64,000 nucleotides of DNA from Psilocybe cubensis (lineage: Eukaryota). Shown here piece after piece: positions 9,529 to 61,165 of this stretch. Made by a program: the position numbers and the translations under genes. Each line of letters begins with the position of its first letter. The first letter of the stretch is position 1. A model generated the notes under the pieces. That model did no database searches, had not been told where the DNA came from, and worked only from the letters and a program-made list of their open reading frames with translations. Where the stretch lies: assembly GCA_017499595.2 (NCBI GenBank), contig CM039005.1, positions 682,001 through 746,000 on the forward strand, given 5' to 3'.

Positions 9529-10175
9529 GAAACCTGTTTGTAAATGGGGAACAAATGGATTTCAAGCGGTGTTACCCCCTACGTTTGAATCCCGTGCAGC
9601 AAATGGAATGACCACCAAACCAATCCATACTGAATGGCCAAGCACCCCCAGTTGAACCTATCAGAACGAAATTTGAGTAAGTCGACTCAGTACAATGATA
9701 TCAAAGCCCATCAGCTTTCCGTTCTTGACCAAGAGTACGAGCGGTTCCTCCCGATTTTGTCTCTGCCAGGCAAAGATAGTCGGGAATATACCAGAACGCA
9801 CTACAAGGTCTGGGGTTTCAACGAGGGTCGCGATATTACACCGGAATCCCTCTCCAGAGTGTGAAAGTCTGCATCGTTTGGGGTGCATACAAAATGAGAG
9901 CAATGAAAAGTTGGTGAGACGTACCGATCCTGCATCCAACCTCACACCGCAGAGTCATCGATGTTCAACATTTTCTTGATTTTCATCTCTATCGCAAGGC
10001 TAAAACGATGTTGAAGGTCTGCCGTTGCATCTCGTCGGTATCCAAGCATGAGTTCCGTTGCAACAGGTGTTCTCTGAGTATCGGTATTATCCGAAGCCTT
10101 GTAACCTTATTTTCCCGCTGCGCAAGGCTGCGCATTACGGCTGAAATCGATTCCTACCACGTCGCACTTAGCTTA

Positions 10176-11816
10176 ATGACCGAACACCACCCTGTTCCTG
10201 GACAATCTCAAAACGATGCCTTACCATCGGAGGCGTACTGGAGTATCCAAGCCTGCAAAATGTCCAACGGGTCTTGCTGTTCCCTTTGTAGCCAATACCA
10301 GAACCTCGATGAGCAGGTTACATTGCCTCGGAAACGTCAACTGCGCACTGAAATCAACCGTCATCACGACCCCATATCCCGATTTCTTCCTTACGAATTG
10401 ATAAGCAAGATTTTCAAGTTCTACGTCGAGGATGACTTTCGAGACCTAGAGGAGCAGAAAGATTGGAGAAATTTCCGCATTACCAACTCGCCGCTAATCA
10501 TTGCATCCATATGCTCAACTTGGCGCAGCGTTGCAATGTCTTCCCCGCAGCTATGGACACACATCCAAATGATACTGCAGGAGTTCTGCCGCCCCCTGGA
10601 TAAACTAGATGTTCTAAACAGGTGGATATCGTTGTCTGGAAACCAGACCGTGTCGCTATTTGTGGTATGTGAAGCGCCTAAACTCATTCCAGACCGTCGG
10701 CGGACGCAATACAAACGCGTTATTGCTGGACTGAACGCCATTTCACATCGCTGGCGAATCCTGCGTCTGTCCTGTTCTCATGCCGCACTTTATCAAATGT
10801 TTTCTGGAAATGTGCAGGGTATGCCGAATCTTTGTGGTTTATCCATCGAGAACTCTATCGAGCCGGACTACGATGATCGCGTTGTATTCCGGACAGATAA
10901 TGGACACAAGCCGCGTCCCTGTGAGGTTCGCCTGATAAGGGTTCCACTTATCTGCCTCGATATAATCTGGAACCAAGTCACCAGAATTAATATATCACAA
11001 TCTGAGTTATCACTCAACGAATGGCGCGAGCTAATGCGTCAGGCCTCGCAATTGTTGGAGTGTGAATTGACTGACATTTTTTTTGCTCCGGTTCTATTGA
11101 ACTTGGACATGACCATGCCCAAGCACCCAAAAGTTGGCAATCATACGCTCAGAAAAGTCAAAATCGGACAGTGTTCTGGAGACCTAGAATATTTTTTCAC
11201 AAAGTTCTCTGCCCCCAATCTCACACAGCTCCTGCTTGAAAAAGCAGGCTCCGTCAAAAACTGGAACTCGATTCGGACTGTTGTCGAGGCTTCTGGTCCT
11301 CAGCTAACGACACTCGGAATTATCATTCATGCAGACGGATGGGATTACGTTTCACTGCTCTCGTTATTGTCTAACACGCCGGTCCTCGAAGATTTACGGA
11401 TTAATGCTCAAATACGATATGATCCAGTCCAGCTTTTCCACATAATAGCCAAGTCTTCGACGCTCGACGTGGACATCCGTCGACCACAAATCCTTCCTGT
11501 GCTACGATCCTTTAGGTATCAAGGCTATAAAACATGGGACGGTTCATTCTGGGAGTTTCTTCCCTATTTTATCAACAGATCAGATCCTGAGAACCCTTGT
11601 TCAAAATCTTGCCCTCTTGACAGTCTAGAGCTCACAACCTGGGATGACGACTACAGGAGCAAGAAAGAAAACGTCCTAGCATCAATATGTCCTAGCAGGG
11701 AAGTCGTTCATCGTATTTCGTTACTGTCGTCTTCAGGGACAACGATTCGTCTTATCCACAATGATATTCACATATTGGCTGCCTCAATACGACATCACTG
11801 TCCTGTTATGGCCTAG
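10176..11816 (+). CDS. F-box-like protein with LRR-like C-terminus (copy A), intronless
   Basis: INRHHDPISRFLPYELISKIF...SPLIIASICSTWRSVAMSSPQLWTHI. The ORF is open from 10008, but the ATG at 10176 is the first one shared in frame with the duplicate copy within this window. Confidence 0.8.
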   Translation: MTEHHPVPGQSQNDALPSEAYWSIQACKMSNGSCCSLCSQYQNLDEQVTLPRKRQLRTEINRHHDPISRFLPYELISKIFKFYVEDDFRDLEEQKDWRNFRITNSPLIIASICSTWRSVAMSSPQLWTHIQMILQEFCRPLDKLDVLNRWISLSGNQTVSLFVVCEAPKLIPDRRRTQYKRVIAGLNAISHRWRILRLSCSHAALYQMFSGNVQGMPNLCGLSIENSIEPDYDDRVVFRTDNGHKPRPCEVRLIRVPLICLDIIWNQVTRINISQSELSLNEWRELMRQASQLLECELTDIFFAPVLLNLDMTMPKHPKVGNHTLRKVKIGQCSGDLEYFFTKFSAPNLTQLLLEKAGSVKNWNSIRTVVEASGPQLTTLGIIIHADGWDYVSLLSLLSNTPVLEDLRINAQIRYDPVQLFHIIAKSSTLDVDIRRPQILPVLRSFRYQGYKTWDGSFWEFLPYFINRSDPENPCSKSCPLDSLELTTWDDDYRSKKENVLASICPSREVVHRISLLSSSGTTIRLIHNDIHILAASIRHHCPVMA

Positions 11817-11998
11817 TCATAGTAAAAGAAAGGTTATGAAGCAAAATGGGGAGCGCACTGAGCACTCCAATTCTGCAAATTGTAAACATGATCAATTGAT
11901 CTTTAGACCAGAATGTATAGGATATATCTGAAAAATGAACCGGCATTGATCAAACCCTGTAATTTTTACTTTCACCTCTTTAGCTTCTGGCCAAGAAC

Positions 11999-12073
11999 TC
12001 TACACATCTGTGTAGGCCTTCCCCTCCGGTCTGCGCTGACGGTTTGGCCCCCGTCGGCGGTCCTGGATGCTCA
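11999..12073 (+). pseudogene. Relic single module of the Cys-rich peptide family (mirror copy near 62000-62076, minus strand)
   Basis: Translates as STHLCRPSPPVCADGLAPVGGPGCS, matching the family motif CxxxCxxxPPxCPxGLAPVGGPGCW; no signal peptide or continuation. Confidence 0.6.
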
Positions 12074-12789
12074 GTTCCGATTGAAGTTTGGTCAAGGGAA
12101 GGGAATGATGCATCATTGTCGATGGTGACCCTGCTGAGAAGGTTGATACATTGTGTAAAGGCAAGTGGTGTTCTGGAAGGACAGAGAACAACTACTTTCG
12201 ATTTGCGGCGACGAATTGGCTCCTAGCTTCTGGAAGCTGCAAGAAGAAATTTTTGGCAGTGTGTAATGAGTCAACGAGCTTGGGTGCCCTCGTGTAAGTC
12301 ATGGATTTCGGCTCGGCTCCAGGAGCGACTCCGACTTTGCTTCCAACGTGTCTGGCGAGCGGTAGGTTATAACTACTGTACATTGAAGGTTCATTTTCGT
12401 TGAAACGAATTTGATAGAATATCTTACCGAGACAGGGATAATCGGAATGATGGACGTTGTTGAAACGAAATGCTTTGGGCATAGGACTACATAGAACGAC
12501 CAAAATGCAGCGGAGGTTGAGAACTTTGATCCTGAGTAAACGAACTTTTGCTTTACCAGTTGCTAACGTCAAAGGCAAAGGCAAAGGTCGATAGCTAGTT
12601 TAAATTAGAGCGTCTTTGTACCTCTCTAAGTTCACCAATCAGATTTCCGTATGGATTCTATTGGTGGGCCAACGTCATTTTTTACAACTTGCGGCGTTGC
12701 AGCATATAATAGCCGCACTGAATGGGAGGAATCGATTAGATCTTAAGCTCAAAGGAGTTGCATGGTAGACCACACAGCATAAAAGGCTG

Positions 12790-13074
12790 ATTGCCGCCTC
12801 GATTCTTTTATTTGTCTCTACTACAGCAGCGACAGACGACAAACTCCCCTGTTCACGCGAGTGTAACTTGGCCGCGCCAACCTGTCCCGCAGGTTCAGCT
12901 CCCATTGGTGGACCTGGATGCTGGGGAAATGTAAACTGCTGCGAAGTTCCAGACCCTGAACGCATAATGGCCTGTACATTGGCATGCTTCCCATCTCCTC
13001 CACGATGTGGAGGGAATACGTTTGCCTTTGCACCTACCGTTGGTGGTTGCTGGAACTGTTGCTCGTTCGTTTGA
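12790..13074 (+). pseudogene. Cys-rich secreted peptide copy lacking transcription start region, 5'-UTR and start codon
   Basis: IAASILLFVSTTAATDDKLPCSRECNLAAPTC...CWNCCSFV* is fused directly to the TATA-like CATAAAAGGCTG; the segment present at 61151-61285 in the intact paralogue is deleted. Confidence 0.8.
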
Positions 13075-13472: not shown

Positions 13473-14210
13473 ATTGTTGGATTGTGCATTGAATGAATCT
13501 TTTTTTGCTCCGGTTCCATTTAACGTGAACAAACCCAAGCACTCAAAAATCAACAGACCGAGAATATTTTTCTACAACACTTTTTGCACCCAGCCACACA
13601 CAGCCTGGCTCCTGTCTAAAAAAGCAGGCTCCCTCACCAACTGGCATAGCATTCAGGCTGCTGTTCAGGCTACGTGTCAGCAGCTAGCGACACCTGGAAA
13701 TTCTCATTCATCCCAACTGGTTGTCGTAGGATGGCATACGATCCGCTGCTCTCATTAATGTAGGCTAATGCACCGCTCCTCGAAGATCCACGGATTATCG
13801 CTGAAATTCGACATGATCCAATCCACCTTTTTCATGTAATTGCCAAATCTTCGACGCTCAGCGGGGACATCTATCGACCTCAGTTTCTTCCTGTACTACA
13901 ACCCTTTCGGTACAAAGGCTATAAAACATGGGACCCCTCATTTTGGAATATTCTGCCCTCTTTTATCACCAGATCAAATCCTGAGAACACTAGTTCAAAA
14001 TCTTGCCCTCTTGACAGTGTAGAGCTCACAACCTGGGATAAAGACTACAGAAGCAACAAAGAAAACGTCCTAGCATTGATACGCCCTAGCAGGGAAGTCG
14101 TTCATCGTATTTCGCTACTTTCATCTTCATGGACAACGATTCGTCTTATCCACAATGATATTGACATATCGGCTGCCTCAATACGATATCACTCTCCTGA
14201 TATGGCCTAG
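13473..14210 (+). pseudogene. Degraded 3' half of the F-box-like gene (copy B)
   Basis: Aligns to ~11050-11816 with indels and stops; shares the ending ATGGCCTAGTCATAGTAAAAGAAAG. Confidence 0.8.
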
Positions 14211-15253
14211 TCATAGTAAAAGAAAGATTATGAAGTAAAATGGGTAGCGCACCGAGCACACCAATTCTGCGATTCATAAACACGAAAAGTCTGATCTTTA
14301 GACCAGAATATATAGCAGTGGTCTGGAGAAGTGGAAAATGTGAAGCTTAGCGGCAGTTCTAATTGCTATATGAGAAACCAGACGATTTTGAACCCATATT
14401 TCATCGACGTCGGACTCAAATGGTCACCGATATGAAGCTAAATTTATCATGAGTGAGGCCTAGTGAGGCATGGATATGCCGACACCGTTGACGTTTGGTC
14501 CTCTGTATATGGATGTCGCGCCGTTGGCAGTGTTGACCGTTTTGAGAAGGTTGACGCAACATGTAAAGGCAAGAGGTGTTCTGGAAGGACAGCGAACCAC
14601 CATCACTGTCGATCTGAGGCGGAGAAGTCGCCTCCTATTACGTCTGGAAGCCGCAGCAAGGAAAATATAAGGTAACGAGCTTAGGTGCCGTAGTTTACGG
14701 CTTGGTTCTAGGAGGGGCTCACTGTATGCTTCCAAGGCGCCTGGCGAGCGGTAATCTATAGCTGCTGTAAATTGAGGATTCGTTTGGCGTTGAAGACAAA
14801 CGATGTGATGGAATACCTTGCGAGACAACATTCGAAATGATGAACGTTGTTGGAACGAAGCATTTTTGGCACAGAATTGCATAGAACGACCGAAATGTAG
14901 AGATTGAGAATTCTGACCCGTAAGAGCCCCTAAGCAAAGAAATTTCGGCATTCTGAGTCGCTAACCTCGAAGGAGAAGACAAAAGTCGAAGGTTAGATTC
15001 GATTAGGAACCGAATAGAGCGTCGTTTTACCTGTTCAAGTTCACGGAACTACATGATAGGGCATACCACACGCTATAAAAGGCTGGAGGAACACTACTTC
15101 ATTCCCCAGTCTTGACCACAAGTACCCACCGGTGCGTACACATCCACTTTTTAACTTGTTTTAGTGGGCCACCGCGGAGCGTGGCATGACGAGTCTTTAC
15201 GATTCAGCGTCACGCTTTGTAATAATATAATATATATATAATATAATATAAAT

Positions 15254-20324: not shown

Positions 20325-20624
20325 ATGAAATACTCAGCTATCGTCGCCTCAATTCTTGTATTCGTCTCTGCTACAGCAGCGACAGAAGAAAAACTCCCTT
20401 GTTCACGCGAGTGCAACCTCCGCCCGCCAACTTGTCCCACAGGTTTGGCTCCCGTTGGTGGACCTGGATGCTGGGGAAATGTGAAATGCTGCGACGTTCC
20501 CGATCCCAAGCGCCTAATGATCTGCACGAAGGCATGTTTCCCATCGCCCCCGCAATGTGGAGGGGATTCGTTTGCCTTCGCACCTAGCGAAGGAGGTTGC
20601 TGGAACTGTTGCTCGTACTTGTAA
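20325..20624 (+). CDS. Small secreted cysteine-rich protein (99 aa, 12 Cys, two tandem 6-Cys modules)
   Basis: Signal-peptide-like MKYSAIVASILVFVSATAA, then CSREC..C..CWGNVKCC and CTKAC..C..CWNCC; paralogues at 54027 and 60866. Confidence 0.9.
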   Translation: MKYSAIVASILVFVSATAATEEKLPCSRECNLRPPTCPTGLAPVGGPGCWGNVKCCDVPDPKRLMICTKACFPSPPQCGGDSFAFAPSEGGCWNCCSYL

Positions 20625-22227: not shown

Positions 22228-23282
22228 AGCTTGTTACTTGATGGTTGTGGAATGTGGGCAAGAGTTGGAACTTGGTTATAATACGGATGTCTACGGTGTG
22301 TTCGGGGGATCCGGCCTATCGACTGGGTAGTAAAGCAGGTATAATGTACCTTACATCCCAATGAAACTTATACCCTGCATTCCCGCAAATAAAGTACCCT
22401 ACATTCCGATGTCTATAATGGGTTATTGGAAGGAAAAATTGTTCTCGGAAGCGCCATTATCTGGGTTAACGGAAATTTTTTCCACTGGCATCATATCAAT
22501 TGAGGCATGAGCATCATTCTCACTCATGTGTTGGAGAGCTTTCTGTTAATGTGCTCATAGAAATTGTGGTGTACGCCTCGATTTTCAGTAGAGTGTAAAG
22601 GTTTGCGGTTGGATTCACTTTAGGATGCCGAACGAAACTTTGGCCCAAGCATCATTTTCATGAACGCGTCAAAGTCTGCGCTAACGATCACTTTGCACGG
22701 GTGACACAAATTGTGGCCTGGAGCTTCATTTTGTCCTAACATGTCAATCTCTCGGTCAAATTTGATTTATTATGCAGATAGAAACTTTGGTGTGAGCATA
22801 TCAAAATTTGGCCAGAGCATTATTTTCATTCATATGTCAAAGTCTGCGATAACACCCATTTTGCAACAAGCGTCACAGAGATTGCAGCTGGAGCATCATT
22901 TTTTCTAGTAACACCTCAAATCTTTCGGTGCAACCCCTTTACTATCCACCCTAAATATTGGTCTGAGCACCATTCATCCTTCAAATACTCAATTTCGCTC
23001 TCAGAATCACTTTCAAACATCTTGGTCTAAGCGTCCGTCATACAGCGGAGGTGGTATCCACATTCAACTTTAGGGTTACGCACAGACCTCAAATTGTTGA
23101 GGACGTCTTTCACTCATTCGGAATCACACATGGTATTATCCATTAACCACAGAACCAGCGAGCAGTTAGAATCCTGCAGAATGTACAAATGCATATTTAA
23201 TACACAGTGATTCAAAATGATTCTTTTGGCACCAATTCTTGAGTTGCCATGATTTGATGCACGGGGTGACGGGCCACATACG

Positions 23283-24016
23283 GGCCACCTTTTGATTGCC
23301 CCGCGAGAAATGGTGCACAGGCCACCTTTTGATTGCCCCGCAAGAAATGGTGCACAGGCCACCTTTTGATTGCCCCGCGAGAAATGGTGCACAGGCCACC
23401 TTTTGATTGCCCCGCGAGAAATGGTGCACAGGCCACCTTTTGATTGCCCCGCGAGAAATGGTGCACAGGCCACCTTTTGATTGCCCCGCAAGAAATGGTG
23501 CACAGGCCACCTTTTGATTGCCCCGCGAGAAATGGTGCACAGGCCACCTTTTGATTGCCCCGCGAGAAATGGTGCACAGGCCACCTTTTGATTGCCCCGC
23601 AAGAAATGGTGCACAGGCCACCTTTTGATTGCCCCGCGAGAAATGGTGCACAGGCCACCTTTTGATTGCCCCGCGAGAAATGGTGCACAGGCCACCTTTT
23701 GATTGCCCCGCAAGAAATGGTGCACAGGCCACCTTTTGATTGCCCCGCGAGAAATGGTGCACAGGCCACCTTTTGATTGCCCCGCGAGAAATGGTGCACA
23801 GGCCACCTTTTGATTGCCCCGCGAGAAATGGTGCACAGGCCACCTTTTGATTGCCCCGCAAGAAATGGTGCACAGGCCACCTTTTGATTGCCCCGCGAGA
23901 AATGGTGCACAGGCCACCTTTTGATTGCCCCGCGAGAAATGGTGCACAGGCCACCTTTTGATTGCCCCGCGAGAAATGGTGCACAGGCCACCTTTTGATT
24001 GCCCCGCGAGAAATGG
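23283..24016. repeat. Minisatellite, ~20 x 37 bp
   Basis: Unit GGCCACCTTTTGATTGCCCCGC(G/A)AGAAATGGTGCACA; A variant in units 2, 6, 9, 12 and 16; no spacers. Confidence 0.97.
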
Positions 24017-24238
24017 CGTACCGGCCATATATTAACCATGTTCCAGAACTGAATCCTCTGCGTCAATTTTTATACTAGCATAAATATAATGCATGTTGAC
24101 CAAAATTCGGCAGCCACACATATTTGTTCTCTCCCCGGATATCCTGTCAAAAATACTCTAAACCATGCATTTGACACATCTGCGGTTTCTGTGGTTGGAG
24201 ACAAACAATGTTGATTTAAATTTTTAACTACAGGCTAA

Positions 24239-27200
24239 CTAATGACCTTGCTTTTTTTCTAACTTTTGAATCTGCTGCCTGTTCCAAATCGAAAAGAAAA
24301 CCCTCATGTACATCACTGCTCTGTCCTGTGACATATAGCTCACAGCCTTTCGAATCTTGGAAATCCCACTGTTTCCACATTCTGCAGCACTAGAATTTAG
24401 TCTGAGCAGATTTGGATTTTCTGCACAGTAAGATGAAAGAAAACAGGCTTCACCACATTTATGTTCACTTGAGTGAAATATGTCGATGGCGAAGAGTGTG
24501 TCCTTGAAGAAGTCTGGTTCCCGTAACATGCAATAAGGCTGTAAAGCACAAGCAAAATCGTATACCACGACTTTTGGAGCCTTTTTCCAGCGTGTGAATA
24601 TTGCCGAGAACACATCGTTTCTTCCCTCCGCCGCTCGGATACAGTGAAATCCATAGCAAATGCTATGGGTGCACCAAACACACATAATCCCGCCGGTTAG
24701 TCGCTTTTTTGAATAGGTGGAGTAGTATTTTCGGCATATGTCTTCGTCAATTTCTGCGCTTCCCAAGTCATATCCTGACTCGTATGGCAAATTTGGATAT
24801 TGTGGACGGTCACGAATGGCCGGCATGGCGTAGCAACATCCTGTCTATTTAAAATCTCGTTTGAAATTTCATTTAACATTATATGACAACTCACCTTGAG
24901 CCAATCATCCATAAATAAATTCTCTTGTAAAACATTGCTTACAACAGCAGGTCCATCGTGAACCTTTAATAGTGTGTAGACCACAGTAACCCGGACGTAT
25001 AGCCATTTACAGACCCCTAGAACCTGATTTGTGAGCGTCCCCATGGTAAGTTCATGCTTAATTAACAGATGGAGAGCCGGGATATATCGCAGCAAATGAA
25101 CATTGCTGAGATAAGGACGTCTGATGAATGTTCGAAGGTTGTCCAGGCAGGAAAATGCTATAAATTGCAGCACATTTTCATCCGAAGACAGCTATAATTA
25201 AAGTTGTTATAATGAGTCGTTTAATATATGGAATACCGAAATACCTGGATGAAAAATTTGGAATACACATCATGCGCATTCCTTTTACCCAAAACAGTAG
25301 CCATCCCAAAGTGGATATCGAAGAGTTCTCCAACGGAAGGGTCCAGGGCCATCAATTTCCGGACTAGCTCGGGAATTTGAGTCAAGCGCTCAACCATTCG
25401 GCGGTTTCGTTCATACTCGGGGCTTCCCTCCGGATGAGTGGCGTCAGAAATGGTGGTTAATTGTGGCCCCTGCAGAATATAACGAATTAAAAGGCGCAAG
25501 GAGCGGTTTGGAATGGCTTGCAGATTGGGTAACGGCCGGACATCTGGTCTAGAGATAGAATTCTCCCCTATTGTAGTCGGGGGACGTAGAGTTGGCATCA
25601 GGTTTTTGCGGCTAAATGACACCGTGACGCCGTCCCATATAGTTGAATCAGGGGTCGGGCCACAGGATGGGCATACCATGTCGGGTCCAAAGTCTATAAG
25701 TCGGGCGTAAGAGAACCAGCTCGATCGAAACAACTTCTCGTTTGCAAACGGAATAGGGGAGTTCCTTGCTTGGTATTGGCGAGAAACAGTCTGCACCCAG
25801 GAAATAAAAGGGGTTTCTGACGACGAAAATGCGCTGGTGTAATCATCAAGGAGCTCATGGGTGAACAAGCTCCGGTTATTGAAATTAAAAATCCCTTGTG
25901 AGCTACAATCTGGCCCAATACATCGATGGGTGCATTTACCGCATTTTTGCAACGTTATAACTGCTTTGAACGCCCGTGTAAGAGTATAAATGGTACACTC
26001 CTTTTCGATTGTAGGTTCAAGAGCTTTGAAACGCTCACGTGGGGTTGTACAACAGCAAGAATCATTCGTCGACAGGGAGATAATCGTTGGAGGAATGTCA
26101 AATGTCACTCTTGGCATTGATGGAGGATCGGATGCGACTCTTGACCAGCCCGGCGGTGGGAGAGGGCGATATGAAACCGATTCAGCAATACCTGCCATTG
26201 TACGCAGAGCCGTACCTATGAAGATAGGTTTGTAGTTAAGTACTCGAACCTTTCAATAGATAATCAAGCTTACCATTGTATTGTAATCCTGTGTCGCCAT
26301 CCTTGCCTACATTGTCGTCTTGAGCATCACAGTTGCCTGTCAAATATTGCTGCAATGTATGCCGCGCCGATACAATATGTGAGCACGAGGATGCCCCACT
26401 GTCCTTGTTGCATTTCCAAACTCCCGCTCCGGTGTCGTCTCCCTGATGTTCGACCACGGCACGGTTCTTGATTGTTGAAAATCGAGTAAATGATGGTGTT
26501 GAGAAGTAATTCATGTACTGTCCATCTTTTATACTCTCGTGCCTTGAAAATAAGAAAGTTGTCTGATCTGTATCTACCAGGATAGCATATGAACACGGTA
26601 TGTTGAATCCATATCAAACAATCTAAGTTCTCACTACCTTTTTCTACCTCAAAAGCCTGGTTTTCCGAACCTACACCAGCATTCTGATCAATGAAGCGTG
26701 AATGGAAACATGAACTTTGCCCATTGGCAGCCGGGCACAAACAAACAGAAGTGAAGATGCCGTCAATCTCCACTCGGAGTACATGGTACCACAGCCGCTA
26801 TTGATGTATGAGAGGGAAATTTAACTTTGCGAGAATCTGAAATGACTTACGGTTGATTCCCCCCTCAAAATATTCCACCCATTTACCACAAATAACCGAC
26901 TGGTCAGTTGAAACAGGCCGCATTCCTCTGCCAAAACAGCATCCAAGAAAAGCGAATAATTTTCATCAAAATTAGGCAGAAGTCGTGTATCTATGTCGTC
27001 ATCTGTAGCTTCAAGCTCCTGATTTGAGGTTTCCAAAACATTGGGCTCGGGAAAATCAGTGAAAGTTGCTGGTGTTGATTGTTGGCCTGGCGTGTGTTCT
27101 GTGTTTTGTGCCTTCCCTTGCCGGTCAGCAACCTTGGTCCGCTTTACTGGACCTGAAACCTTTCTCTTTTTGCGAATTGGAGTAGTAATAAGTTCGCAGT

Positions 27201-36614: not shown

Positions 36615-38135
36615 GGACACATTTCGTGTCTCTCACACAAATTCCGGTGTACGAAGAATTGTGACTCCAACACCAAATCCTGGCGCACGAAAGATTGTGA
36701 GTCCCTCACCAAATTCTCGCGCTCACCACATTTCGCGGCTCTCACACAAATTCCGGTGCACGAAACATTGTGAGTCCTTCACACACATTCTGGCGCTCAC
36801 CACATTTCACAGCTCTCACACTAACTCAGGTGCATCCCTCACACAAATTCTGGTGCTCACCACATTTCGAGTCCCTTGCACAAATTCTGGCACTCCGCTC
36901 TTTTCGAGTCCCTCATACAAATTCCGCTGCGTGACACATTTCGAGTCCCCTCACACAGACTCTGGAACTCCCCACATTTCACGTCCCTCACACAAATCCC
37001 GGTGCACGAAACATTGTGAGTCCTTCACACAAATTCTGGCACTCACCACATTTCAATTCCCTCACACAAACTCAGGGGCATCCCTCACAGCGTCCCCTCA
37101 CAAATTCCACTGCACAACACATTTCGTGTCTCTCACACATATTCTGGTGCACGAAACATTGTGAGTCCCTCACCAAATTCTCGCGCTCACCACATTTCGC
37201 GGCTCTCACACAAATTCCGGTGCACGAAACATTGTGAGTCCTTCACACACATTCTGGCGCTCACCACATTTCACAGCTCTCACACTAACTCAGGTGCATC
37301 CCTCACACAAATTCTGGCGCTCACCACATTTCGAGTCCCTCGCACAAATTCTGGCACTCCGCTCTTTTCGAGTCCCTCATACAAATTCCGCTGCGTGACA
37401 CATTTCGAGTCCCTCATACAGATTCTGGAACTCCCCACATTTCGCGTCCCTCACACAAATCCCGGTGCACGAAACATTGTGAGTCCTTCACACAAATTCT
37501 GGCACTCACCACATTTCAATTCCCTCACACAAACTCAGGGGCATCCCTCACAGCGTCCCCTCACAAATTCCACTGCACAACACATTTCGTGTCTCTCACA
37601 CATATTCTGGTGCACGAAACATTGTGAGTCCCTCACCAAATTCTCGCGCTCACCACATTTCGCGGCTCTCACACAAATTCCGGTGCACGAAACATTGTGA
37701 GTCCTTCACACACATTCTGGCGCTCACCACATTTCACAGCTCTCACACTAACTCAGGTGCATCCCTCACACAAATTCTGGCGCTCACCACATTTCGAGTC
37801 CCTCGCACAAATTCTGGCACTCCGCTCTTTTCGAGTCCCTCATACAAATTCCGCTGCGTGACACATTTCGAGTCCCTCATACAGATTCTGGAACTCCCCA
37901 CATTTCGCGTCCCTCACACAAATCCCGGTGCACAAAACATTGTGAGTCCTTCACACAAATTCTGGCACTCACCACATTTCGATTCCCTCACACAAACTCA
38001 GGGGCATCCCTCACAGCGTCCTCTCACAAATTCCACTGCGCGACACATTTCGTGTCTCTCACACATATTCTGGTGCACGAAACATTGTGAGTCCCTCACC
38101 AAATTCTCGAGCTCACCACAGTTCGAGTCCCTGAC
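36615..38135. repeat. Higher-order tandem repeat: ~3.2 x 463 bp built from diverged ~36-37-bp monomers
   Basis: Equivalent starts at 36697, 37161, 37624 and 38087; monomers such as TCACACAAATTCCGGTGCACGAAACATTGTGAGTCCT. Confidence 0.92.
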
Positions 38136-38534
38136 CTGACTTCGGGTGCACGTAACATCTAGGGTCGTCCTCAGCAATTTCGGCTGTGCCCAGAAATTTT
38201 AACCTTCCGAGACCATGGCAGTGTTGTCTTGCTTGATATCAAACTATGACAACATTTATTGAGCCCACATGTAATGAGGCCCATTCCATGCCATACAGCA
38301 GCCCGGGAGTGGATCAACAAGCTTATCATAGAATGTTTCAGCAGATTAAATTGGAAATGCGGTAGGTGCGGACATTTGAGTGATAAATTATGTTTGCCGT
38401 GAGCAAGATATTTAGGTCTTGATGACTGTTTTAGGAAGATGGAATGTACGGTTCATGGTTAGCAGGCATGTAGGGTCTACATCTATGAGGACTGTAAGGT
38501 ACATTATACCGTATTTCTATATGGCCGATTTGCG

Positions 38535-39000: not shown

Positions 39001-41247
39001 ACCCTTAATCAGATAATCTGCAACATGATGGATAAGAAAAGAACAACAGAAGTCGCTTACTTATCTTACTGCGCCATCTCTACATTTAACTTGGGATATT
39101 CCTCATACGCTCCCGGATCTCTGCATCTAGCTCGGTGGCCGAGGATGTTATAAAACGGGGACAGCAATTGACATACTTGGTACGCGTTTTGCTTTTCCCA
39201 GGAAACAAATTTATACAGAATGAGTTAACGTATGACTCAGTTCCAGCCATTGTCGGTGGAATCACGGACGAACCAGAATTCGGTCATCTACCAGTTGTGA
39301 CTCACAACAGGCTTTGCATACACACAAACACACGCACACGTGTTACTCACGCCGCCACTGAAATGAAGCAAATGATAATAGCAAGTGGTTTCTTCATTAA
39401 ATATCAATATGTGCATATAGATGTAACAGCCCGTTAAAAACTTGAAAGAGTGTTGCTTCCAATGCGCTCGATGCTCATTAACACTTAAGCTTAGGCGCCC
39501 AAATACCAAATAAAAGGAGTGACGTCATATCAAAAATATCTATCGCGTATAGCCAATCAGGCTGTAGAATACGTACCCTCGTGTAACTATCTTTAAATAA
39601 ATAAATGCCTCTCTTCTGTTTTTCCCTGGGAAGAAGCACTTGCAGGGGTCTAATCCCAAGCATATGAGGGCAGAGTGGTGAGAACCTCTCGCTAACCAAG
39701 GCAGCGTATCTGCTTCCTGGGCCCTGTATTGATATTAACAATGACAGTACATCAGGGTTTACCGGTTACCCACGGCCTTCAGAAACAATATTTTTCGGCT
39801 GTGTGTGTCTTTTACTCCAGCAGACTGCTTGCGCTATCTATCCTAAACGATGCAATTAAGTTACTTTGTACTAAATGCAACAAAATTGTGGAGAATATTA
39901 ATACTTTAATTTTGTGAGAGTTGTACAGTATATAGCCGGTCAGTGGCTAGTTGGTGAGTGGCGTAGGAAGTCTTGCGCTGTTCCCGAAAAACACCGAAGA
40001 CGCAACCCGCTATCAAAATGTCACATTGGAGGTGTTTGGCTTCAACTGGGTTAAAAACGCCTTGAGGCTCGAACAAATATTACTCCCATGGCATGGGAAT
40101 CATGGAATGGATCCGTGACTCATCGAAGAATCATCGATTGGACCAGAAACAGTGCTTTCGACAATCGATATGAGAATCTGGAAGACATAAATAAGTCCAC
40201 CAAACGTAGAGGATGCGCCATTCAACTCCCCTTTCAAATTTGCATTTTACATCATACCCTCGACGCTTCCCATCCAGCATGTCCAACACCGACCATCCCT
40301 TCTGGACGAATTTTCCCCCCACCGGTCCCCACTATGACCCGCATCCGAACGCAGATGTTGTACGACTTCATTCCTGCCCTTCTTCTGTTTAAACGTCGAG
40401 TTAATATCAAACATCTAGCGCCGAAACGATAACCTTGGGTTAAAGCCTCAAAAGCTCAATGTAAAAAATCTTGTTCTTCAATGTGTACTTTCCTGTACAC
40501 TGATCCATCTTAAATTCCAAACAGGAGAATATTCTTTTCTTTGTTGGCGGCACTGCGCACGTTGGTCTTCTGATCAACATCTTTGAGTCCGCAAGGAATG
40601 GGGTAAGTGGTTATTAATATGGCAGTTTGGATCTGTCCTCATGAATGTTGCAGTGTATTGTAATTTGGGGATAAGACTAGGCGAGAGTTAATGAGCCAGC
40701 AGTACACTTGCTTTGTTACCAGGTAAAGTTTTATTAACCTTGTTATGTTCCTATAATCTTGACATTATCAACCACTACTCTTCAAACTATTAGCCTACCT
40801 CTTTCTGCAACCGCACCTCAACTTGATTGAAGCAATACCACAAAGGAAATGCAATAGTGAAGATGCCCGTATTACATAGTGTTAATATCTGTATCCTTTG
40901 GTCTGTGATACCCCCCAGTTAATTGAATTCCAATATGTTGTTCTGTAAACTATGGCAGTTTACAAATGAGATTCACATTCCATATTTTATATCAGTTCAC
41001 AGTTTTGTTGCACTTGCTCCCTCTTACCTGAATCCTCCTGAGTAATTCCACCACATATCTTAGACTGATGGTCTACCTCCCACCAGCAGTGAGAGGGAGA
41101 TTACTGTACTGCCGCAGGATTGTCGTTTGCTTTGCCATCAGACGGTTACACGGACTGGCGGTCTTAACCGGGGAAATGTCACGCTCGTATTATTTGTCTA
41201 ATTTTACACGCGTACGTCAACACCAATCTTACTTGGTTCAACTATCA

Positions 41248-42682
41248 ATGGTTCCCAATGTTCGACCCACCACAATACTTGCCCTTGGTGCTTTCACCTT
41301 CGTCGTGACAACCAGTGCTCTTTCTCTATTTTCCATCAAACAGTCCAAGAAAAAGGCTGTCAAATGGCCCCGTCGTGAAAAGGTATGAAATTGTCCTGCA
41401 GAACATTGTTAGGGCCAGGAATAATTTATTTTATACGTCAGCTACCCAGAGACCTCGAGACTTGGAAGTTCCTCGTCATCGAAGACTACATGGACGCATG
41501 GAATGAGCTCCGCCCTCTTCTCGCGCAGCATAACCTCGAGCTCTGGAGAACCACGATAGGACAACAGCTCTGGGAGCACGACCTGCCTCCGCATGGCGAC
41601 AACTTTCTCTACCTGACCAGTCACGACACGCCGAGTAAATCCCTGGTAAACTGGTGTAGATTCAGCGTGCTGACGGTGTGTCTGCACCACGCTGCGCGCA
41701 TGGATGGAATTCGCGATGTCGTTCTCCGCGTCGTTTCCTTATCAGCCGGAGATACAGGCCAGACGCATCTACGAATACTGAAGCGCCTGGCATCACCCCC
41801 TGATCAGCTGCTAAGCAGCAACCACATCCTACCAATATTACAAGAGATTTACTTTGAGGATATAGTCATTATAGCCGTCCCGAAGCTTATTTATAATGTT
41901 CGCGAGGTGCTACGCTACAGAAAGTCAAATTCGGTTGAGGACGCGCTGTACATGGTAGTTCAGGCTTTTGAGGCGGGTTCATGGTGTTTCTACTACCCCT
42001 GGTTCGAACACACATTGACTAAGTGGCGATAATTTACAGGCAACTGCGTATATTCACCAAAAATTCATTGCGCACCGTGTAAGTGTTCCTGTTCACCTTA
42101 AGGTCGGATATTTCGTCTTAATGCAATCTTACATACCATCATCACAGGACCTATATCTCCCCAACTTTATGGTCGAATGGATGCCAGAGTCTCTCTCAAA
42201 ACGCACGACCGTGGCTCGGCCAAGGGTATATATGATCGACTTCGAAACAGCCGTTGACTTCCTCCCGGACTCCATAGAGGCGGATAGAGTGTGCACGACA
42301 TTCCACCGGGATCTAGACCAATTCGGGCGATACATCGCACCGGAACTTCGAACGAAGGAGCCATATTGTCCTTTCAAGTTGGATATGTGGCAGTTGGGTG
42401 AAGATCTTCGGATCAATCTTGTGGTGTGTTTTTCAGCTGGAATGTCCTCAGTATACGTACAAATGACGATGCCGTTATCTGATAAATGTTTTATAGACCG
42501 GATTGGATGAGGTTGATGGATTGTGGCAGGCCCTTTGCATGCCTAATCCTCAAGACCGCATGAATGCTGACACGGCGCTTAAAACTCTCGACGATTACCT
42601 TCGCAAAACTCCCTCTATCGATCTCCACAGGGAGATTTTAAACCCGTTGGATGCCAATGAACCCATTTTTTTATATAACTGA
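41248..42682 (+). CDS. Atypical protein-kinase-like protein with N-terminal hydrophobic anchor (copy 1), 5 exons
   Basis: MVPNVRPTTILALGAFTFVVTTSALSLF, DVVLRVV, NHILP, IAHR|DLYLPNF, VYMIDFETA, YIAPE, PFKLDMWQLG and P.DRM. Confidence 0.85.
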
Positions 42683-43902
42683 ACATATCGACTTTCCCCC
42701 AAGACCACTGAAGTACTGAACGCTCATCTATTGGCTATTGGTTTTATTTGCTTTGTCTTTTGCATTTGGGTCGCCTTTATCCACTCACACTCCTTTACTG
42801 TCTTAGCTTTATCTGTGGCATTTCCAGCGCGTGAGCATTGATTGTGTCTTGCCATTTTGTCAATTCTCCATTTGTAACAGCAAGACAGCCATTGCTTAGT
42901 ACAATAATTAAGACGCTTCTCTTTTTTACGTGTATATAACATTTAAAATCTATATGAATATTTATTTTCTAGTTTCGCAAGTAGAGGAGTGGAGTTCGGC
43001 ACCTTTCATTCTGACAAAACGAATAAGCGACATTCACCCAGAGTGCCGTCTCAAAATTATAAAGGGGTACGCTGCTTTCTAGCTAGTAATTTCTTTAAAA
43101 AAAATCTCGTTTATTCTCGTATTGTAGCATACCATGTGTTAGAGAATATCACAGCATCTTAGCAAAGGGCAATCGAGTAGCTGCAATAAGTTCAAGAACA
43201 ACAAAAGAGGCCGAGACCGGACTCTGAGCACAAGCGTGCTAAAATATCACTAGCAAACAGTGCGGGCGGGTGTGTAAAGGAATAAAAAAGGTAGAAAAGT
43301 GTACGTCTAGGCGCAAGGTTAAGCTCAAGGTCGTCTGATAAAACTGTAGCTGTGCGAGTCAACTGCAAGCCTGTAAGCTATAACTGTCAGATGCTGCTCG
43401 TAATGCGATCTGTCGGAGGCCGGGTATTTCTTTTTCTTTTTCTTCTTTTTTTCACTTGACGGGCAGTTACCTCTGACCTCCAAGGGTGTTAAGGGCGTTG
43501 TGGGAGACACCAGGTGTATAATGAGGATCTCCGCGATGCGTGGGGGATCCGGCTTAAAATAATATTACATGTTGTTAGTATGATGGAGTCACAGATGGGA
43601 ATTCATTACAGTCATATTTTGTGCGCCACTGACGTTCGACGTGACCTGTGGAATTGTCAATGGAATGGCGACCCTGTGCCCGGAGCCTCACCAAAAATCC
43701 CCAGTCTAATCCGTCCAAAAAGGTCGCATGGCCATTGACCGGTGACCATTGTCCCAGCAATGTTTTTTTAGGATTTGCTACGCGTTCTGTAAAAAGAAAA
43801 GAGGAACCAAAGAGGAACCAGGTGTGTTCCCGGACCACTGTATCCGGCCGAGTGCACCCGAATTTACCTCTGACTCTCTAATTGCAAAGGGAGTTGTGGG
43901 TA

Positions 43903-44116: not shown

Positions 44117-44679
44117 GTAGTAACTCTTACTTTCGTTGAGGTTGGAAAAAGGCTAGGTTATAAATTGGACCTCAGTACCAAAAAGGTGTATATCACATAT
44201 TTTAACGGAGTGTGAGGTCTGATTCCAAAGAGTGATATGCTGCTATACTCTCCAACACATGGTATGCCACAATACGAGAATAGACGAGATTTTTTTTTTT
44301 AAAAAAAAAAAGACTAACTAGAAAGCATCGTACCCTATGAAATTTTGAGACGGCACTCTGGGTAAACATCGCTTATTCGTTTTGTCAGAATGGAAGGTGC
44401 CGAACACCACTCCCCACCTTGCTAAACTAGAAAATAAATATTCATATAGATTTTTAAATGTTATATACACGTAAAAAGAGAAAAGTCTTGAATATTGTAC
44501 TAAGCAATGGCTGTCTTGCTGTTACAAATGGAGAATAGACAAAATGGCAAGGCACAATCAATGCTCACGCGCTGGAAATGCCGCAGATGAAGCTAAGACA
44601 GTAAAGGAGCGTGAGTGGATAAAGGCAACCCAAATGCAAAAGACAAAGCAAATAAAACCAATAGCCAATGGATGAGCGT

Positions 44680-46150
44680 TCAGTACTTCAGTGGTCTTGG
44701 GGGAAAGTCGATATGTTCAGTTATATAAAAAAAGGGTTCATTGGCATCCAACGGGTCCAAAATCTCCCTGTGGAGATCGATAGAGGGAGTTTTACGAAGG
44801 TAATCGTCGAGAGTTTTAAGAGCGGTGTCAGCATTCATGCGGTCTTGAGGATTAGGCATGCAAAGGGCCTGCCACAATCCATCAACCTCATCCAGTCCGG
44901 TCTATATATTATTTATCAGAGAACGACATCGTCATTTGTACGTGTACTGAAGACATTCCAGCTGAAAAACACACCACAAGATTGATCCGCAGATCTTCGC
45001 CCAACTGCCACATATCCAACTTGAAAGGACAATATGGCTCCTTCGTTCGAAGTTCCGGTGCGATGTATCGCCCAAATTGGTCTAGATCCCGGTGGAATTT
45101 CGTGCACACTCTATCCGCCTCTAAGGAGTCCGGGGGGAAGTCAACGGCTGTTTCGAAGTCGATCATATATACCCTTGGTCGAGCCACGGTTGTGCGTTTT
45201 GAGAGAGACTCTGGCATCCATTCGACCATAAAGTTGGGGAGATATAGGTCCTGTGATGATGGTATGTAAGATTGCATTAAGACGAGATATCCAATCTTAA
45301 GGTGAACAGGAAAACTTACACGGTGCGCAATGAATTTTTGGTGAATATACGCAGTTGCCTGTAAATTATCGCCACTAAGTCAATATGTGTTCGATACAGG
45401 GGTAGTAGAAACACCATGAACCCGCCTCAAAAGCCTGAACTACCATGTACAGCGCGTCCTCAACCGAATTTGACTTTCTATAGCGTAGCACCTCGCGAAC
45501 ATTATAAATAAGCTTCGGGACGGCTATAATGACTATATCCTCAAAGTAAATCTCTTGTAATATTGGTAGGATGTGGTTGCTGCTTAGCAGCTGATCAGGG
45601 GGTGATGTCAGGCGCTTTATTATTCGTAGATGCGTCTGGCCTGTATCTCCGGCTGATAAGGAAACTACGCGGAGAACGACATCGCGAATTCCATCCATGC
45701 GCGCAGCGTGGTGTAGACACGCCGTCAGCACGCTGAATCTACACCAGTTTACCAGGGATTTATTCGGTGTGTCGTGAGTGGTCAGGTAAAGAAAGTTGTC
45801 GCCGTGCGGAGGCAGGTCGTGCTCCCAGAGCTGTTGTCCTATCGTCGTTCTCCAGAGCTCGAGGTTGTGCTGCGCAAGAAGAGGGCGGAGCTCATTCCAT
45901 GCGTCCATGTAGTCTTCGATGACGAGGAACTTCCAGGTCTCGAGGTCTCGAGGTAGCTGATTTACAAAATGGGTTATTCCTGGCTGTGGCAATGTGCTGA
46001 AGGACAATTTCATACCTTTTCACGACGGGGCCATTTGACAGCCTTTTTCTTGGACTGTTTGATGGAAAATAGAGAAAGAGCACTGGTTGTCACGACAAAG
46101 GTGAAAGTACCAAGGACAAGTAATGTGGTGGGTCGAACATTGTGAACCAT
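44680..46150 (-). CDS. Atypical protein-kinase-like protein (copy 2)
   Basis: ORFs 45375-46013, 44909-45277 and 44680-44877 are nearly identical to copy 1; ATG at 46150. Confidence 0.85.
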
Positions 46151-46896
46151 CGATCGTTGAAACAAGTAGTTATGGTTGTGGGAGAATTTAAGGTTGGTGT
46201 TGACGTACGTACGAGAAATACAGTAAATGCGAACGTGACATTTCCCCGGTTAACCCCGTCAAAGCGGTTTCGTTGATGAGTTGCCAAGTAGCCTTATCAC
46301 ATCCTTTAGGGCCATGCAAGCAATTTTGCGTGTACAGCAGCGGTACAAAACCGAAAATCATTTTTCTGAAGGCTGTGGGTAAACCCTGATGTCCTTTAAT
46401 ATCAATACACCGCCCAGGAAGCAGATACGCTGCCTTGGTTAGTGAGGTTCCCACCACTCCGCCCTCATATGCTTGGGATTAGAACCCTGCAAGTGCTTCT
46501 TCTCAAGGAAAAACAGAAGAGAAGTATTCATTTAAAATTAGTTACATGAGGGCTCTACGTATTCTACAGCCTGATTGGCTAGACGCGACAGATATTTTGA
46601 TATGACGTCACTTCTTTTCTGGTATGTGGGCGCCTACGTGTTTATGAACATCGAGCAAATTGGAAGCAACATCCTTTTGTATTTACCCACAGCCTTCAGA
46701 AAAATGATTTTCGGTTGTGTAACGCTACTATACAGGCGAAATTGCTTGCATCGCCCTAACGAATGCGATAACTTTGTAACTCATCAACGAACCTGTTTTG
46801 GCGGGGTTAACCGGGGAAATGTCACGTTCGCATTTACTGTATTTCGCGTACGTACGTCAATTCTCCCACAACCATAACCACTTGGCTCAACTATCG

Positions 46897-48386
46897 ATGG
46901 TTCACGGTTCTCGACCCACCTCACTAATTGTCCTCGCTGCTTTCACCTTTGTCGTGACAGCCAATGCTCTTGCTCTATTTTCCATCAAACAATCCAAGAA
47001 AAAGGCTGCCAAATGGCCCCGTCGTGAAAAGGTGTGAAGTTGTCCCTCAGCGAAGACGAGGCATAATTTATTTTCTACGACAGCTACCCAAAGATCTTGA
47101 GACCTGGAAGTTTTTCACAATCAAAGAATACATGGAAGCATGGAACGAGCTCCGCCCTCTTCTCGCGCAGCATAACCTCGAGCTCTGGAGAACCTCGGCG
47201 GGGCAACAGCTCTGGGACCGCGACCTGCCTCCACAGGGCGACAACTTCTTCTACCTGACCAGTCACGACTTTCCGAATAGCTCCCTGGCAAGATGGTCCC
47301 ATTTCAGCGTGCTGACGGCGTGTCTGCACCACGCTGCGCGCATGGATGGAATTCGCGATGTCGTTCTCCGCGTCGTTTCCTTATCAGCCGGAGATACAGG
47401 CCAGACGCATCTACGAATAATAAAGCGCCTGGCATCACCCCCTGATCAGCTGCTAAGCAGCAATCACATACTACCGATATTAAAAGAGATTTACTTTGAG
47501 GATATAGTCATTATAGCCGTCCCGAAGCTTATTTTTGATGTTCGCGACGCGCTGCGCCATGTAAAGGATAACTCGGTCGAAGACGGGCTGTACATGGCGC
47601 TCCAGGCTTTTGAGGTGCGTTCACTGTGTTTCTGCTACCCCTGTATCGAACACACATTGACTAAGTGGCGATAATGTACAGGCTACTGCGTACATTCACC
47701 AAAACCTCATTGCGCACCGTGTACGTTTTCCTGTTCACCCGTTCTGTTCACTTTGAAGATCAAAAGTCTTGTCTTAATGGAGTCTGACATACCGTCATCA
47801 CAGGATTTATATTTAACTAACTTTATGGTCGAATGGATGCCAGAGTCTCTCTCAAAGCGCACGACCGTGGCTCGTCCAAGGGTATACATGATCGACTTCG
47901 AAACTGCCGTTGACTTCCCCCCGGACTCCTTAGAGGCGGATAGAGTGTGCACGACATTCCACCGGGATCTAGACCAATTCGGGCGATACATCGCACCGGA
48001 ACTTCGAACAAAGGAGCCATATTGTCCTTTCAAGTTGGATATGTGGCAGTTGGGCGAAGATCTGCGGATTAACCTTGCGGTGCGTGTTTTTCAGCTGGAA
48101 TGTCTTCATTACACGTACACGTACATGTACAAATGACGATGTTGTTAAATTCTCTGATATATGATTTTTAGACCGGATTGGATGAGGTTGATGGATTGTG
48201 GCAGGCGCTTTGCATGCCTAATCCTCAAGACCGCATGAATGCTGACACGGCGCTTAAAACTCTCGACGATTACCTTCGCAAAACTCCCTCCATCAATCTC
48301 CACATGGCGATTTTGGACCCGTTGGACGCCAATGAACCCATGTATATATACGACTGAACACATCGACTTTCTCCCACCTCCACTGA
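46897..48386 (+). CDS. Atypical protein-kinase-like protein (copy 3)
   Basis: ORFs 46964-47674 and 47753-48136; same exon layout, more diverged in the N-lobe. Confidence 0.85.
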
Positions 48387-49062
48387 AGTACCAAGTACTG
48401 AACGTTGAGCGTTGAACGTTGAACGCTCATCCATTGGTTAGATTTATTGCTCTTATTTGCTTTGTATGTATCTTTGCACTGCTTTCGTTCGCTGTATCTA
48501 CGGGTCTGGGTCGGGTTCGGGTCGCCTTTGTCCATTCAGGCTGCTTCACAGTATTAGTTTTATCTTTGCTATCTTGTCTTTTGCTCTTTGTTATACATAG
48601 TAATATTTGATAGCCTATCAACAGCCATTGCTTAGTACATACATGATTTCTTTGCAGGTTTCTCTTCGGTAAAAAGAATTAGAAAGGAGAAGAGGGAAAA
48701 GCAGGAGTCACGTATCCAGGATGTCCGAGGACCACTTTAATTTCTCCGGGTCGAGCCGAGTGCACCCGGACGTGCGCTATCAGGCGCTATCCCACTTACC
48801 TCTCTGACCTCTGAGCTCTCTGAAGTGCAAATAGTATATGCGAGTTGTCCAAAATCGTATCTGACGCACGTCTATGAGTTAATAAAATTGAAGGGACGAA
48901 ACGCAGATGAACTGTTCATCTAGCTATAGTTGAACAATGCAGCTGAACGGTTCATCTAGTTGGAGGTGAACAATGCAGAGGGTAATACCTATCCAGTCGG
49001 AAAAAAATGGCAGAGGAAAAATAGCAAAAATAGCATTATTATTATAAAAGACAAAACAGAGA

Positions 49063-54026: not shown

Positions 54027-54320
54027 ATGAAATACTCAGCTGGCATCACCACCACCGCACTTATCCTCGGCGCATCCTTCACCGCCGGCCAAATATGCAC
54101 GCAGGAGTGCAACTCCTCTCCGCCTACCTGTCCCGCGGGACTGGCTCCCGCGGGCGGGCCAGGATGCTGGGCGAATGTCGGGTGCTGCAGGGTGCCTGAT
54201 CCGAGCCGCGATATGGCGTGCACGCGGATTTGTGCGTCTGGCCCGCCCAAGTGTGGTGGAGATACGTTTGCGTTTGCGAAGCAGGAGGGAGCGTGCTGGA
54301 GTTGTTGCTGGTTTTTGTGA
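54027..54320 (+). CDS. Small secreted cysteine-rich protein (97 aa, 12 Cys), divergent paralogue
   Basis: Signal-like MKYSAGITTTALILGASFTAG; CTQEC..CWANVGCC and CTRIC..CWSCC modules. Confidence 0.9.
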   Translation: MKYSAGITTTALILGASFTAGQICTQECNSSPPTCPAGLAPAGGPGCWANVGCCRVPDPSRDMACTRICASGPPKCGGDTFAFAKQEGACWSCCWFL

Positions 54321-60865: not shown

Positions 60866-61165
60866 TCAAAAGTACGAGCAACAGTTCCAGCAACCTCCAT
60901 CGGTTGGTGCAAATGCAAACGTATCCCCAGCACATCGCGGGGGCGATGGGAAGCATGCCCGGGTACAGGCCATTGGACGCTCAGGGTCTGGAACGTCGCA
61001 GCAGTTCACATTTCCCCAGCATCCAGGTCCACCAATGGGAGCTAAACCTGCCGGACAGGTTGGCGGGCGGAGGTTACACTCGCGTGAACAAGGGAGTTTT
61101 TCGTCTGTCGCTGCTGTAGCAGACACGAATAAAAGAATCGAAGCGACAATAGTTGAGTATTTCAT
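60866..61165 (-). CDS. Small secreted cysteine-rich protein (99 aa, 12 Cys), copy with intact promoter
   Basis: MKYSTIVASILLFVSATAA...CSREC...CTRAC...CWNCCSYF; TATA-like CATAAAAG at ~61290-61297 and a putative 5'-UTR intron (GTGAGT...ATAG). Confidence 0.92.
   Translation of the reverse strand: MKYSTIVASILLFVSATAATDEKLPCSRECNLRPPTCPAGLAPIGGPGCWGNVNCCDVPDPERPMACTRACFPSPPRCAGDTFAFAPTDGGCWNCCSYF

Follow-up and report, generated by a model that had tools for sequence, protein, structure and literature searches.

The window, by which we mean the whole 64,000-nucleotide stretch of DNA analyzed here, carries three intact genes and one start-less copy of a family encoding small cysteine-rich peptides, together with a module relic and its mirror copy (Table 1). 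Copies A, B, and C each comprise an ATG, a hydrophobic N terminus, 12 cysteines, and a stop codon. When each peptide was searched against the window by tblastn, the other three were recovered (E values of 1e-29 to 1e-56). A module HMM run against all 2025 six-frame ORFs of the window (at least 20 aa) detected the four genes at E values of 1e-22 to 1e-25 and the two relics at 2e-8 and 6e-8; no further family members were detected in this ORF set, all other ORFs scoring at E ≥ 0.5. A sequence-only reading of the same DNA had placed three copies and a pseudogene at the positions listed for A, B, C, and D, and all four were recovered there, D with its 12-cysteine body and without an in-frame ATG. 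Finding four such copies is far beyond chance.

Copy D is distinguished from copy C by 135 missing nucleotides (61151-61285, equivalent to codons 1 to 5 and 120 nt upstream), as located from the repeat junctions, with the boundary at 12789/12790. The homologous 5' stretch is retained in copy A, indicating that the difference arose by deletion in D. Copy D is therefore probably a recent pseudogene.

We compared the mature parts of the copies pairwise by the Nei-Gojobori method. All 12 cysteines were conserved in the four copies of the codon alignment. The dN/dS ratio was 0.24 for A versus C (dS of 0.38), 0.32 for A versus D, 0.29 for C versus D, and 0.12 for A versus B, the last with saturated dS; four sequences are too few for single-site testing, and these values describe the mature peptide as a whole. 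Ratios of 0.12 to 0.32 indicate coding genes under purifying selection rather than chance ORFs. We regard the window genes as genuine, each with a single exon, and as those of a mushroom-type (Agaricomycete-like) fungus.

Table 1. Peptide gene copies, their parts, and other features of the window
Feature	Position	Strand	Description
Copy A, intact gene	20325-20624	+	99 aa plus stop; signal-like N terminus, two 6-Cys modules, 10-residue linker; basis: ORF, translation, AlphaFold
Copy A, signal-like N-terminal segment (~residues 1-20)	20325-20384	+	Kyte-Doolittle hydropathy and low pLDDT; cleavage site inferred
Copy A, module 1 (residues 26-56)	20400-20492	+	C-x3-C-x6-C-x11-C-W-x4-CC; 3-residue insertion before CC relative to family consensus
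Copy A, module 2 (residues 67-96)	20523-20612	+	C-x3-C-x6-C-x13-C-W-x-CC; 2-residue insertion in long loop relative to consensus
Copy B, intact gene	54027-54320	+	97 aa plus stop; most divergent, 56-57% identity to A and C
Copy C, intact gene	60866-61165	-	99 aa plus stop, from second in-frame ATG; 84% identity to A
Copy D, start-less	12790-13074	+	Complete 12-Cys body, no in-frame ATG; codons 1-5 and 120 nt upstream deleted
Module relic	12002-12070	+	C2 to C4 only, no CW-x-CC end; within inverted repeat; tblastn E of 2e-5; module HMM E of 1.6e-8 on ORF 11984-12223
Mirror copy of module relic	62005-62073	-	Other arm of inverted repeat; tblastn; module HMM on ORF 61852-62091
Inverted duplication, arms	10127-12789 and 61286-63948		Copies D and C at inner ends
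Long ORF, one arm	9918-11816	+	632 aa; no Pfam match
Long ORF, other arm	62259-63998	-	No Pfam match
Partial copies of long ORF	13555-14315 versus 11180-11920 and 62155-62895		81-86% identity; adjoins copy D
AT-rich segment	18001-20000		GC of 0.36, versus 0.44-0.52 elsewhere; directly upstream of copy A
Tandem array	23132-24171		37-nt unit, ~28 copies, 98-100% core identity; adjoins KDZ-transposase CxC4 ORF
CxC4 domain of KDZ transposases	25221-26252	-	Pfam match
Tandem repeat	36674-38173		Period of ~463 nt, at least 3 copies, 91-99% identity
GC-skewed segment	36001-38000		GC skew of -0.295; coincides with ~463-nt tandem repeat
Element of ~1.4-1.7 kb, three copies	41230-42926, 44473-46168, and 47059-48391		Two inverted at 95%, one direct at 86-92% identity

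The surroundings look like a repeat-rich Agaricomycete chromosome arm. In addition to the KDZ-transposase domain, Pfam identified a mitochondrial ribosomal protein mL59, a formyl transferase, and a TENA/THI-4 protein in the window. A large inverted duplication has copies C and D at its inner ends. Its arms are 100% complementary over 2663 nt according to the repeat finder and 99.7% identical by blastn over overlapping stretches. At exactly the point where copies D and C have their 5' ends, identity between the arms falls to 88%; this step could mark a gene-conversion or recombination boundary, or it could be an assembly artefact. Copies A and C share only ~50 nt of upstream and ~140 nt of downstream sequence. 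Together, the inverted duplication and the shared flanks of the copies point to a family that has spread by local segmental duplication.

Several other repeats were observed along the window. The long ORF that lies in each arm of the inverted duplication recurs as partial copies next to copy D, and the peptide genes and this Pfam-less ORF seem to duplicate together. Two tandem repeats of different unit length were found, one beside the transposase ORF and one within a strongly GC-skewed segment. The element of ~1.4 to 1.7 kb contains ORFs of 217 to 238 aa without a Pfam match; it may represent a duplicated gene or a mobile element of no assigned class.

A repeated module shared with other fungal proteins

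An exhaustive phmmer search of 1.84 billion representatives with copy B returned 9 proteins (E values of 1.4e-8 to 4.4e-4), all of which contain several copies of one motif. Of 3766 candidates searched with a profile (A1) constructed from the four window copies and four of these relatives, 48 proteins matched at E ≤ 0.001 (best E value of 4e-47). An organism name was attached to 22 of the 48, and every one of the 22 was fungal: 15 from Agaricales genera, 6 from Aspergillus, and 1 from Conidiobolus coronatus. The 15 names comprise Psilocybe, Agaricus, Amanita, Crepidotus (two), Cyathus, Macrolepiota (two), Crassisporium, Leucoagaricus, Agrocybe, Galerina, Gymnopilus (two), and Panaeolus, all of which we take to be Agaricales. 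A search among longer proteins yielded 4 matches in 7998 candidates, including an 8-module protein of Aspergillus stella-maris (363 aa) and AN8544 of A. nidulans (299 aa). A word-indexed search with peptide A gave no candidate sharing three 5-residue words, indicating that the window's own peptides are absent from that collection. The source names of the homologues are annotation labels only: "hypothetical protein," "small cysteine-rich protein," "cell wall cysteine-rich protein" (on two of the names), and the automatic "4Fe-4S ferredoxin-type domain-containing protein."

The unit of this family is a 28-residue module, C-x3-C-x6-C-x11-C-W-x-C-C, present in 1 to 8 copies per protein in Agaricales, Aspergillus, and Conidiobolus. 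Among 95 modules parsed from 50 homologues (3 of the 50 gave no module under the pattern), 85 had the cysteine spacing 3-6-11-2-0, that is, C-x3-C-x6-C-x11-C-x2-CC. Across 86 canonical modules the six cysteines were invariant, and four further positions were nearly so (P10 in 98%, G20 in 97%, W25 in 99%, and G26 in 93%). Consistent with this pattern, the proline before C3, the glycine in the long loop, the tryptophan after C4, and the cysteine columns were invariant across 29 aligned sequences. Every conserved noncysteine position in the 86 modules is thus Gly, Pro, or Trp, no catalytic-looking residue is conserved among them, and the conserved positions are structural. Linkers between modules (n = 58) are rich in Pro (19%), Thr (12%), and Ser (8%), which suggests a beads-on-a-string layout.

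The window peptides depart from this consensus in a regular way. Each of their modules deviates by one insertion, x4 in place of x before the CC pair in module 1 and x13 in place of x11 in module 2, and the spacings given in the sequence-only reading (C-x3-C-x6-C-x11-C-W-x4-CC and C-x3-C-x6-C-x13-C-W-x-CC) were confirmed in all four copies. The six CxxxC loops that it had listed are likewise all present: CSREC (in three copies), CTQEC, CTKAC, CTRAC, CTRIC, and CTLAC. Identity between window peptides and homologues is 30 to 40% over the whole protein. The two modules are joined by 10 residues without the Pro/Thr spacer, and the peptides end directly after the last CC without an anchor signal. 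These data indicate that the window peptides are divergent members, and a local expansion, of an uncharacterized fungal family of secreted cysteine-rich repeat proteins.

The expected leader is also recognizable. The Kyte-Doolittle maximum of copy A over 10 residues is 3.10 at residue 5, and the same segment has a pLDDT of 49 to 53 in the structure model, as expected for a cleaved leader. Hydrophobic N termini were found by a crude hydropathy test in 3 of 3 intact window genes and in 38 of 53 homologues, signal peptides being judged throughout by hydropathy and eye only; most of the homologues that failed the test look like mis-called N termini or fragments. The earlier claim of a signal-like N terminus therefore holds by hydropathy for the three intact genes, and the descriptive part of that reading, a fungal family of secreted two-module 12-cysteine peptides, stands. 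For the mature window peptides the calculated pI ranges from neutral to acidic (4.6 to 6.3), and they contain no more Lys and Arg than Asp and Glu (K+R ≤ D+E).

No described domain was recognized in these proteins. An hmmscan against Pfam-A at E ≤ 10 found no family for any of the four window peptides, hydrophobin, CFEM, and cerato-platanin included. At the same threshold 8 of 9 homologues matched nothing, and the ninth matched only the irrelevant zf-FCS (E value of 5). Sequence searches of the PDB, with a single peptide and with profile A1, returned only chance-level matches (best E values of 0.34 to 0.6, to a phospholipase D, an antibody VH, and HCV E2). Our literature searches found no description of the 28-residue module.

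The modules are similar across a wide taxonomic distance. Each of 23 Aspergillus modules (from P0006, P0009, P0011, P0017, P0018, P0026, P0051, and P0052) has a best Agaricales match at 71 to 86% identity (median of 79%), which is as high as the identity between different Agaricales proteins (median of 71%). The named matches are patchily spread over Agaricales, Aspergillus, and one Conidiobolus. The similarity between Agaricales and Aspergillus modules points either to horizontal transfer or to extreme constraint.

Predicted structure and candidate functions

We modeled copy A with AlphaFold2 from an alignment of 29 sequences, and module 2 alone from an alignment of 22. The copy A model had a mean pLDDT of 81.9, with block means of 90 to 94 for residues 31 to 99, and consisted mostly of loops with short strands. 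Module 2 alone reached a pLDDT of 87.9 with three short strands. Each module is thus predicted, with confidence, to fold compactly, with loops and three short strands. In Foldseek, which is weak on tiny domains poor in secondary structure, neither the whole copy A model nor the module 2 model matched a PDB entry at E ≤ 0.001. Above this threshold the whole-protein model gave 8 irrelevant matches (E values of 5.7 to 9.7), and the module 2 model gave 3, all of them to tachystatin A or B (E values of 3.4 to 7.5; probability ≤ 0.09; TM of 0.38 to 0.42). In the ESM Atlas, the entries retrieved with peptide A and with the Agaricus bisporus homologue stayed below the lead threshold: the top feature score was 0.81, and TM did not exceed 0.31.

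We consider it highly likely that the window genes belong to the repeat family described above and encode a secreted disulfide mini-domain. The best overall explanation, to which we give about an even chance, is that the product is a secreted, disulfide-locked, two-module binding protein. The leader would route the peptide through the ER, where each module would be expected to form three disulfides from its six cysteines. The mature peptide of ~77 residues would then act outside the cell as a rigid, protease-resistant binder with two heads and no enzymatic activity. The beads-on-a-string layout of the relatives, the wall-related labels on two of them, and the lack of conserved catalytic-looking residues fit such a role. 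By analogy with the tandem small binding modules of other secreted fungal proteins, a candidate ligand would be a hyphal wall or extracellular matrix constituent, or the surface of a partner organism. Binding of a wall or matrix ligand is our preferred guess at the activity, but a tentative one that we hold to be less likely than not. The short linker, without a Pro/Thr spacer, and the missing anchor signal make wall association weaker for the window peptides than for the Aspergillus proteins.

The literature on named members is sparse. The only naming of a member that our searches found is AN8544, which the accessible portion of its source lists as a table entry among poorly characterized genes down-regulated on suberin. 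The phrase "cell wall cysteine-rich protein" was found once, in a table that lists an A. flavus gene, which may or may not belong to the family. Literature matches for the Agaricus bisporus "small cysteine-rich protein" concern cerato-platanins and hydrophobins.

A second reading, which we regard as rather unlikely, is that the genes encode secreted defence peptides, antimicrobial or anti-fungivore, acting as a knottin-like toxin or as a membrane- or chitin-binding agent. A locally duplicated, divergent family of small secreted proteins would fit a defence role equally well, and the family is multicopy and lies in a repeat- and transposon-rich stretch. The product is predicted to be small, stable, and disulfide-rich, and the sole Foldseek neighbors of module 2, the tachystatins, are horseshoe-crab antimicrobial peptides. 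However, the tachystatin matches are nonsignificant and are leads at most. The calculated pI is unlike that of most cationic antimicrobial peptides, a mild argument against this role. In addition, knottins have the cysteine order C-C-CC-C-C, whereas here the order is C-C-C-C-CC, with the pair at the end.

The Pin-II analogy and less probable alternatives

The most attractive claim of the sequence-only reading was that these peptides are Pin-II-like double-headed serine-protease inhibitors with a diversifying P1 residue. Pin-II inhibitors have eight cysteines (four disulfides) per repeat and a reactive loop of the form C-[PT]-[RKL]-x-C, in which the third residue is P1; canonical inhibitors arise convergently, and their loops vary. 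As a rival explanation, the window peptides would be double-headed canonical inhibitors, related to Pin-II or convergent with it, the CxxxC loop being reactive and its third residue acting as P1 (R/K for trypsin-like targets).

Part of the evidence fits such a role. The third loop residue in the intact genes is R, R, and Q in module 1 and K, R, and R in module 2. Up to the CC pair, the cysteines are spaced much as quoted for Pin-II in the earlier reading. The scaffold is predicted to be small, rigid, and disulfide-rich with short strands, there are two heads, and local gene duplication is typical of defence families.

Against this, the comparisons by sequence and fold gave no support. No match to Pin-II (Prot_inhib_II) was obtained from Pfam at E ≤ 10 for any of the four window peptides, the single zf-FCS hit being the only Pfam match among the 9 homologues, and the PDB held no sequence match. 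The AlphaFold and Foldseek comparison, which the earlier reading had also suggested, placed no protease inhibitor among its 11 weak PDB matches (8 for the whole protein and 3 for module 2). Six cysteines, as opposed to eight, were counted in all eight window modules and in all 95 parsed homologue modules, bearing out the earlier observation that Pin-II cysteines are missing.

The loop itself, taken across the family, also tends to argue against a reactive site, although the eight window loops have R, K, or L as third residue in seven cases and Q in one. Family-wide it most often reads CTAVC (13 modules), CLAVC (10), or CAAVC (8). For the proposed P1, the 86 canonical modules, drawn from 50 homologues, give counts of 35 for A, 12 for T, 10 for D, and 8 each for K and L. 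At the fourth loop position V occurs in 57 of the 86 modules and looks structural, unlike a reactive site. Diversification of P1 did not hold up either: the third residue is mostly basic in the intact genes, the only L is in start-less copy D, and three copies have the same module 1 loop. With dN/dS below 1 overall, diversifying selection on the peptide as a whole is not indicated. Taken together, these comparisons leave cysteine spacing as the sole basis of the Pin-II analogy; neither sequence nor fold nor the loop as seen across the family lends it support. We therefore regard the double-headed inhibitor as unsupported and quite unlikely. Very unlikely, in our judgment, is a combined version in which the CW-x-CC module is a new disulfide-rich fold and the basic CxxxC loop of the window subfamily has become a canonical inhibitor loop, derived from an older wall- or matrix-binding family; if that were true, the window peptides would be the first double-headed inhibitors in fungi to have converged on plant Pin-II.

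Two further rivals concern processing and metal binding. We think it highly improbable that the gene product is a Kex2-processed precursor, cut at a conserved linker Arg (P-D-P-x-R) into two single-module signal peptides. An Arg does occupy the same place in the linker of all four window copies, with a dibasic K-R there in copy A, and K-R also precedes two modules of the 8-module A. stella-maris protein and occurs once in a spacer of AN8544. However, only 1 of 4 window linkers is dibasic, [KR]R was found in just 5 of 58 family linkers (two of the five within degenerate segments that contain Cys), and basic pairs are absent from most linkers, which are spacers rich in Pro and Thr. As a feature of the family, Kex2 processing was rejected on the count of 5 in 58. 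A cysteine-rich protein binding Zn or Cu is the least credible reading of all: the high cysteine density and the ferredoxin-type UniRef label on several homologues would suit it, but the label is automatic, the leader would send the peptide into the oxidizing secretory pathway, no Pfam ferredoxin match appeared at E ≤ 10, and no His or Asp ligands are conserved.

Secreted small cysteine-rich proteins make up a large and mostly unexplained share of fungal secretomes. The window genes are now tied to a definable 28-residue domain that is confidently modeled, lacks both a Pfam entry and a solved relative, and retains ~70 to 86% module identity between Agaricales and Aspergillus. The domain is a concrete target for a new domain family, and A. 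nidulans AN8544 offers a genetically tractable member for the study of function. The main result is the correction of an attractive analogy with Pin-II.

Comparison with known systems

The Pin-II inhibitors (MEROPS I20; Pfam Prot_inhib_II) share with the window peptides an arrangement of repeated small disulfide-rich units, a superficially similar C-x3-C ... C-x2-CC pattern, and, in some of the fungal modules, a basic or Leu residue in the CxxxC loop. They differ in that the window family is fungal rather than plant and has six cysteines per unit, its loop does not appear to be conserved as a reactive site across the family, and neither sequence nor fold provides a match. Tachystatins A and B, which are inhibitor cystine knots, resemble the modules in size, three disulfides, and three short strands (here predicted only); the order of single and paired cysteines differs, and the TM values of 0.38 to 0.42 are nonsignificant.

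Two groups of fungal proteins are similar in more general terms. The Kex2-processed repeat proteins (KEPs), as described in the accessible part of the literature on them, are likewise secreted precursors with repeated units, and a few members of the present family carry K-R before a unit. In contrast to the short linear cores described there, the units of the present family are predicted folded domains of 28 residues, and dibasic sites are confined to 5 of 58 linkers. PriA, Cfl1, and Dha1, which carry the SIGC domain, are also secreted, cysteine-rich basidiomycete cell-surface proteins. On the portion of the published description available, SIGC is a single C-terminal domain of ~80 residues and not a 28-residue repeat, and a putative link with the present module gained no support from it.

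The closest known systems are the fungal CW-x-CC repeat proteins themselves: the Agaricus bisporus H97 "small cysteine-rich protein" (P0008), the two proteins labeled "cell wall cysteine-rich protein," from Aspergillus stella-maris (P0051) and A. karnatakaensis (P0018), and AN8544 of A. nidulans (P0052). They share with the window peptides the six cysteines, P10, G20, W25, and an N-terminal hydrophobic leader, and they are matched by the profile at E values down to 4e-47. The window peptides differ from them in a loop whose third residue is basic rather than Ala, in the module insertions, in a linker of 10 residues, and in an overall identity of 30 to 40%.
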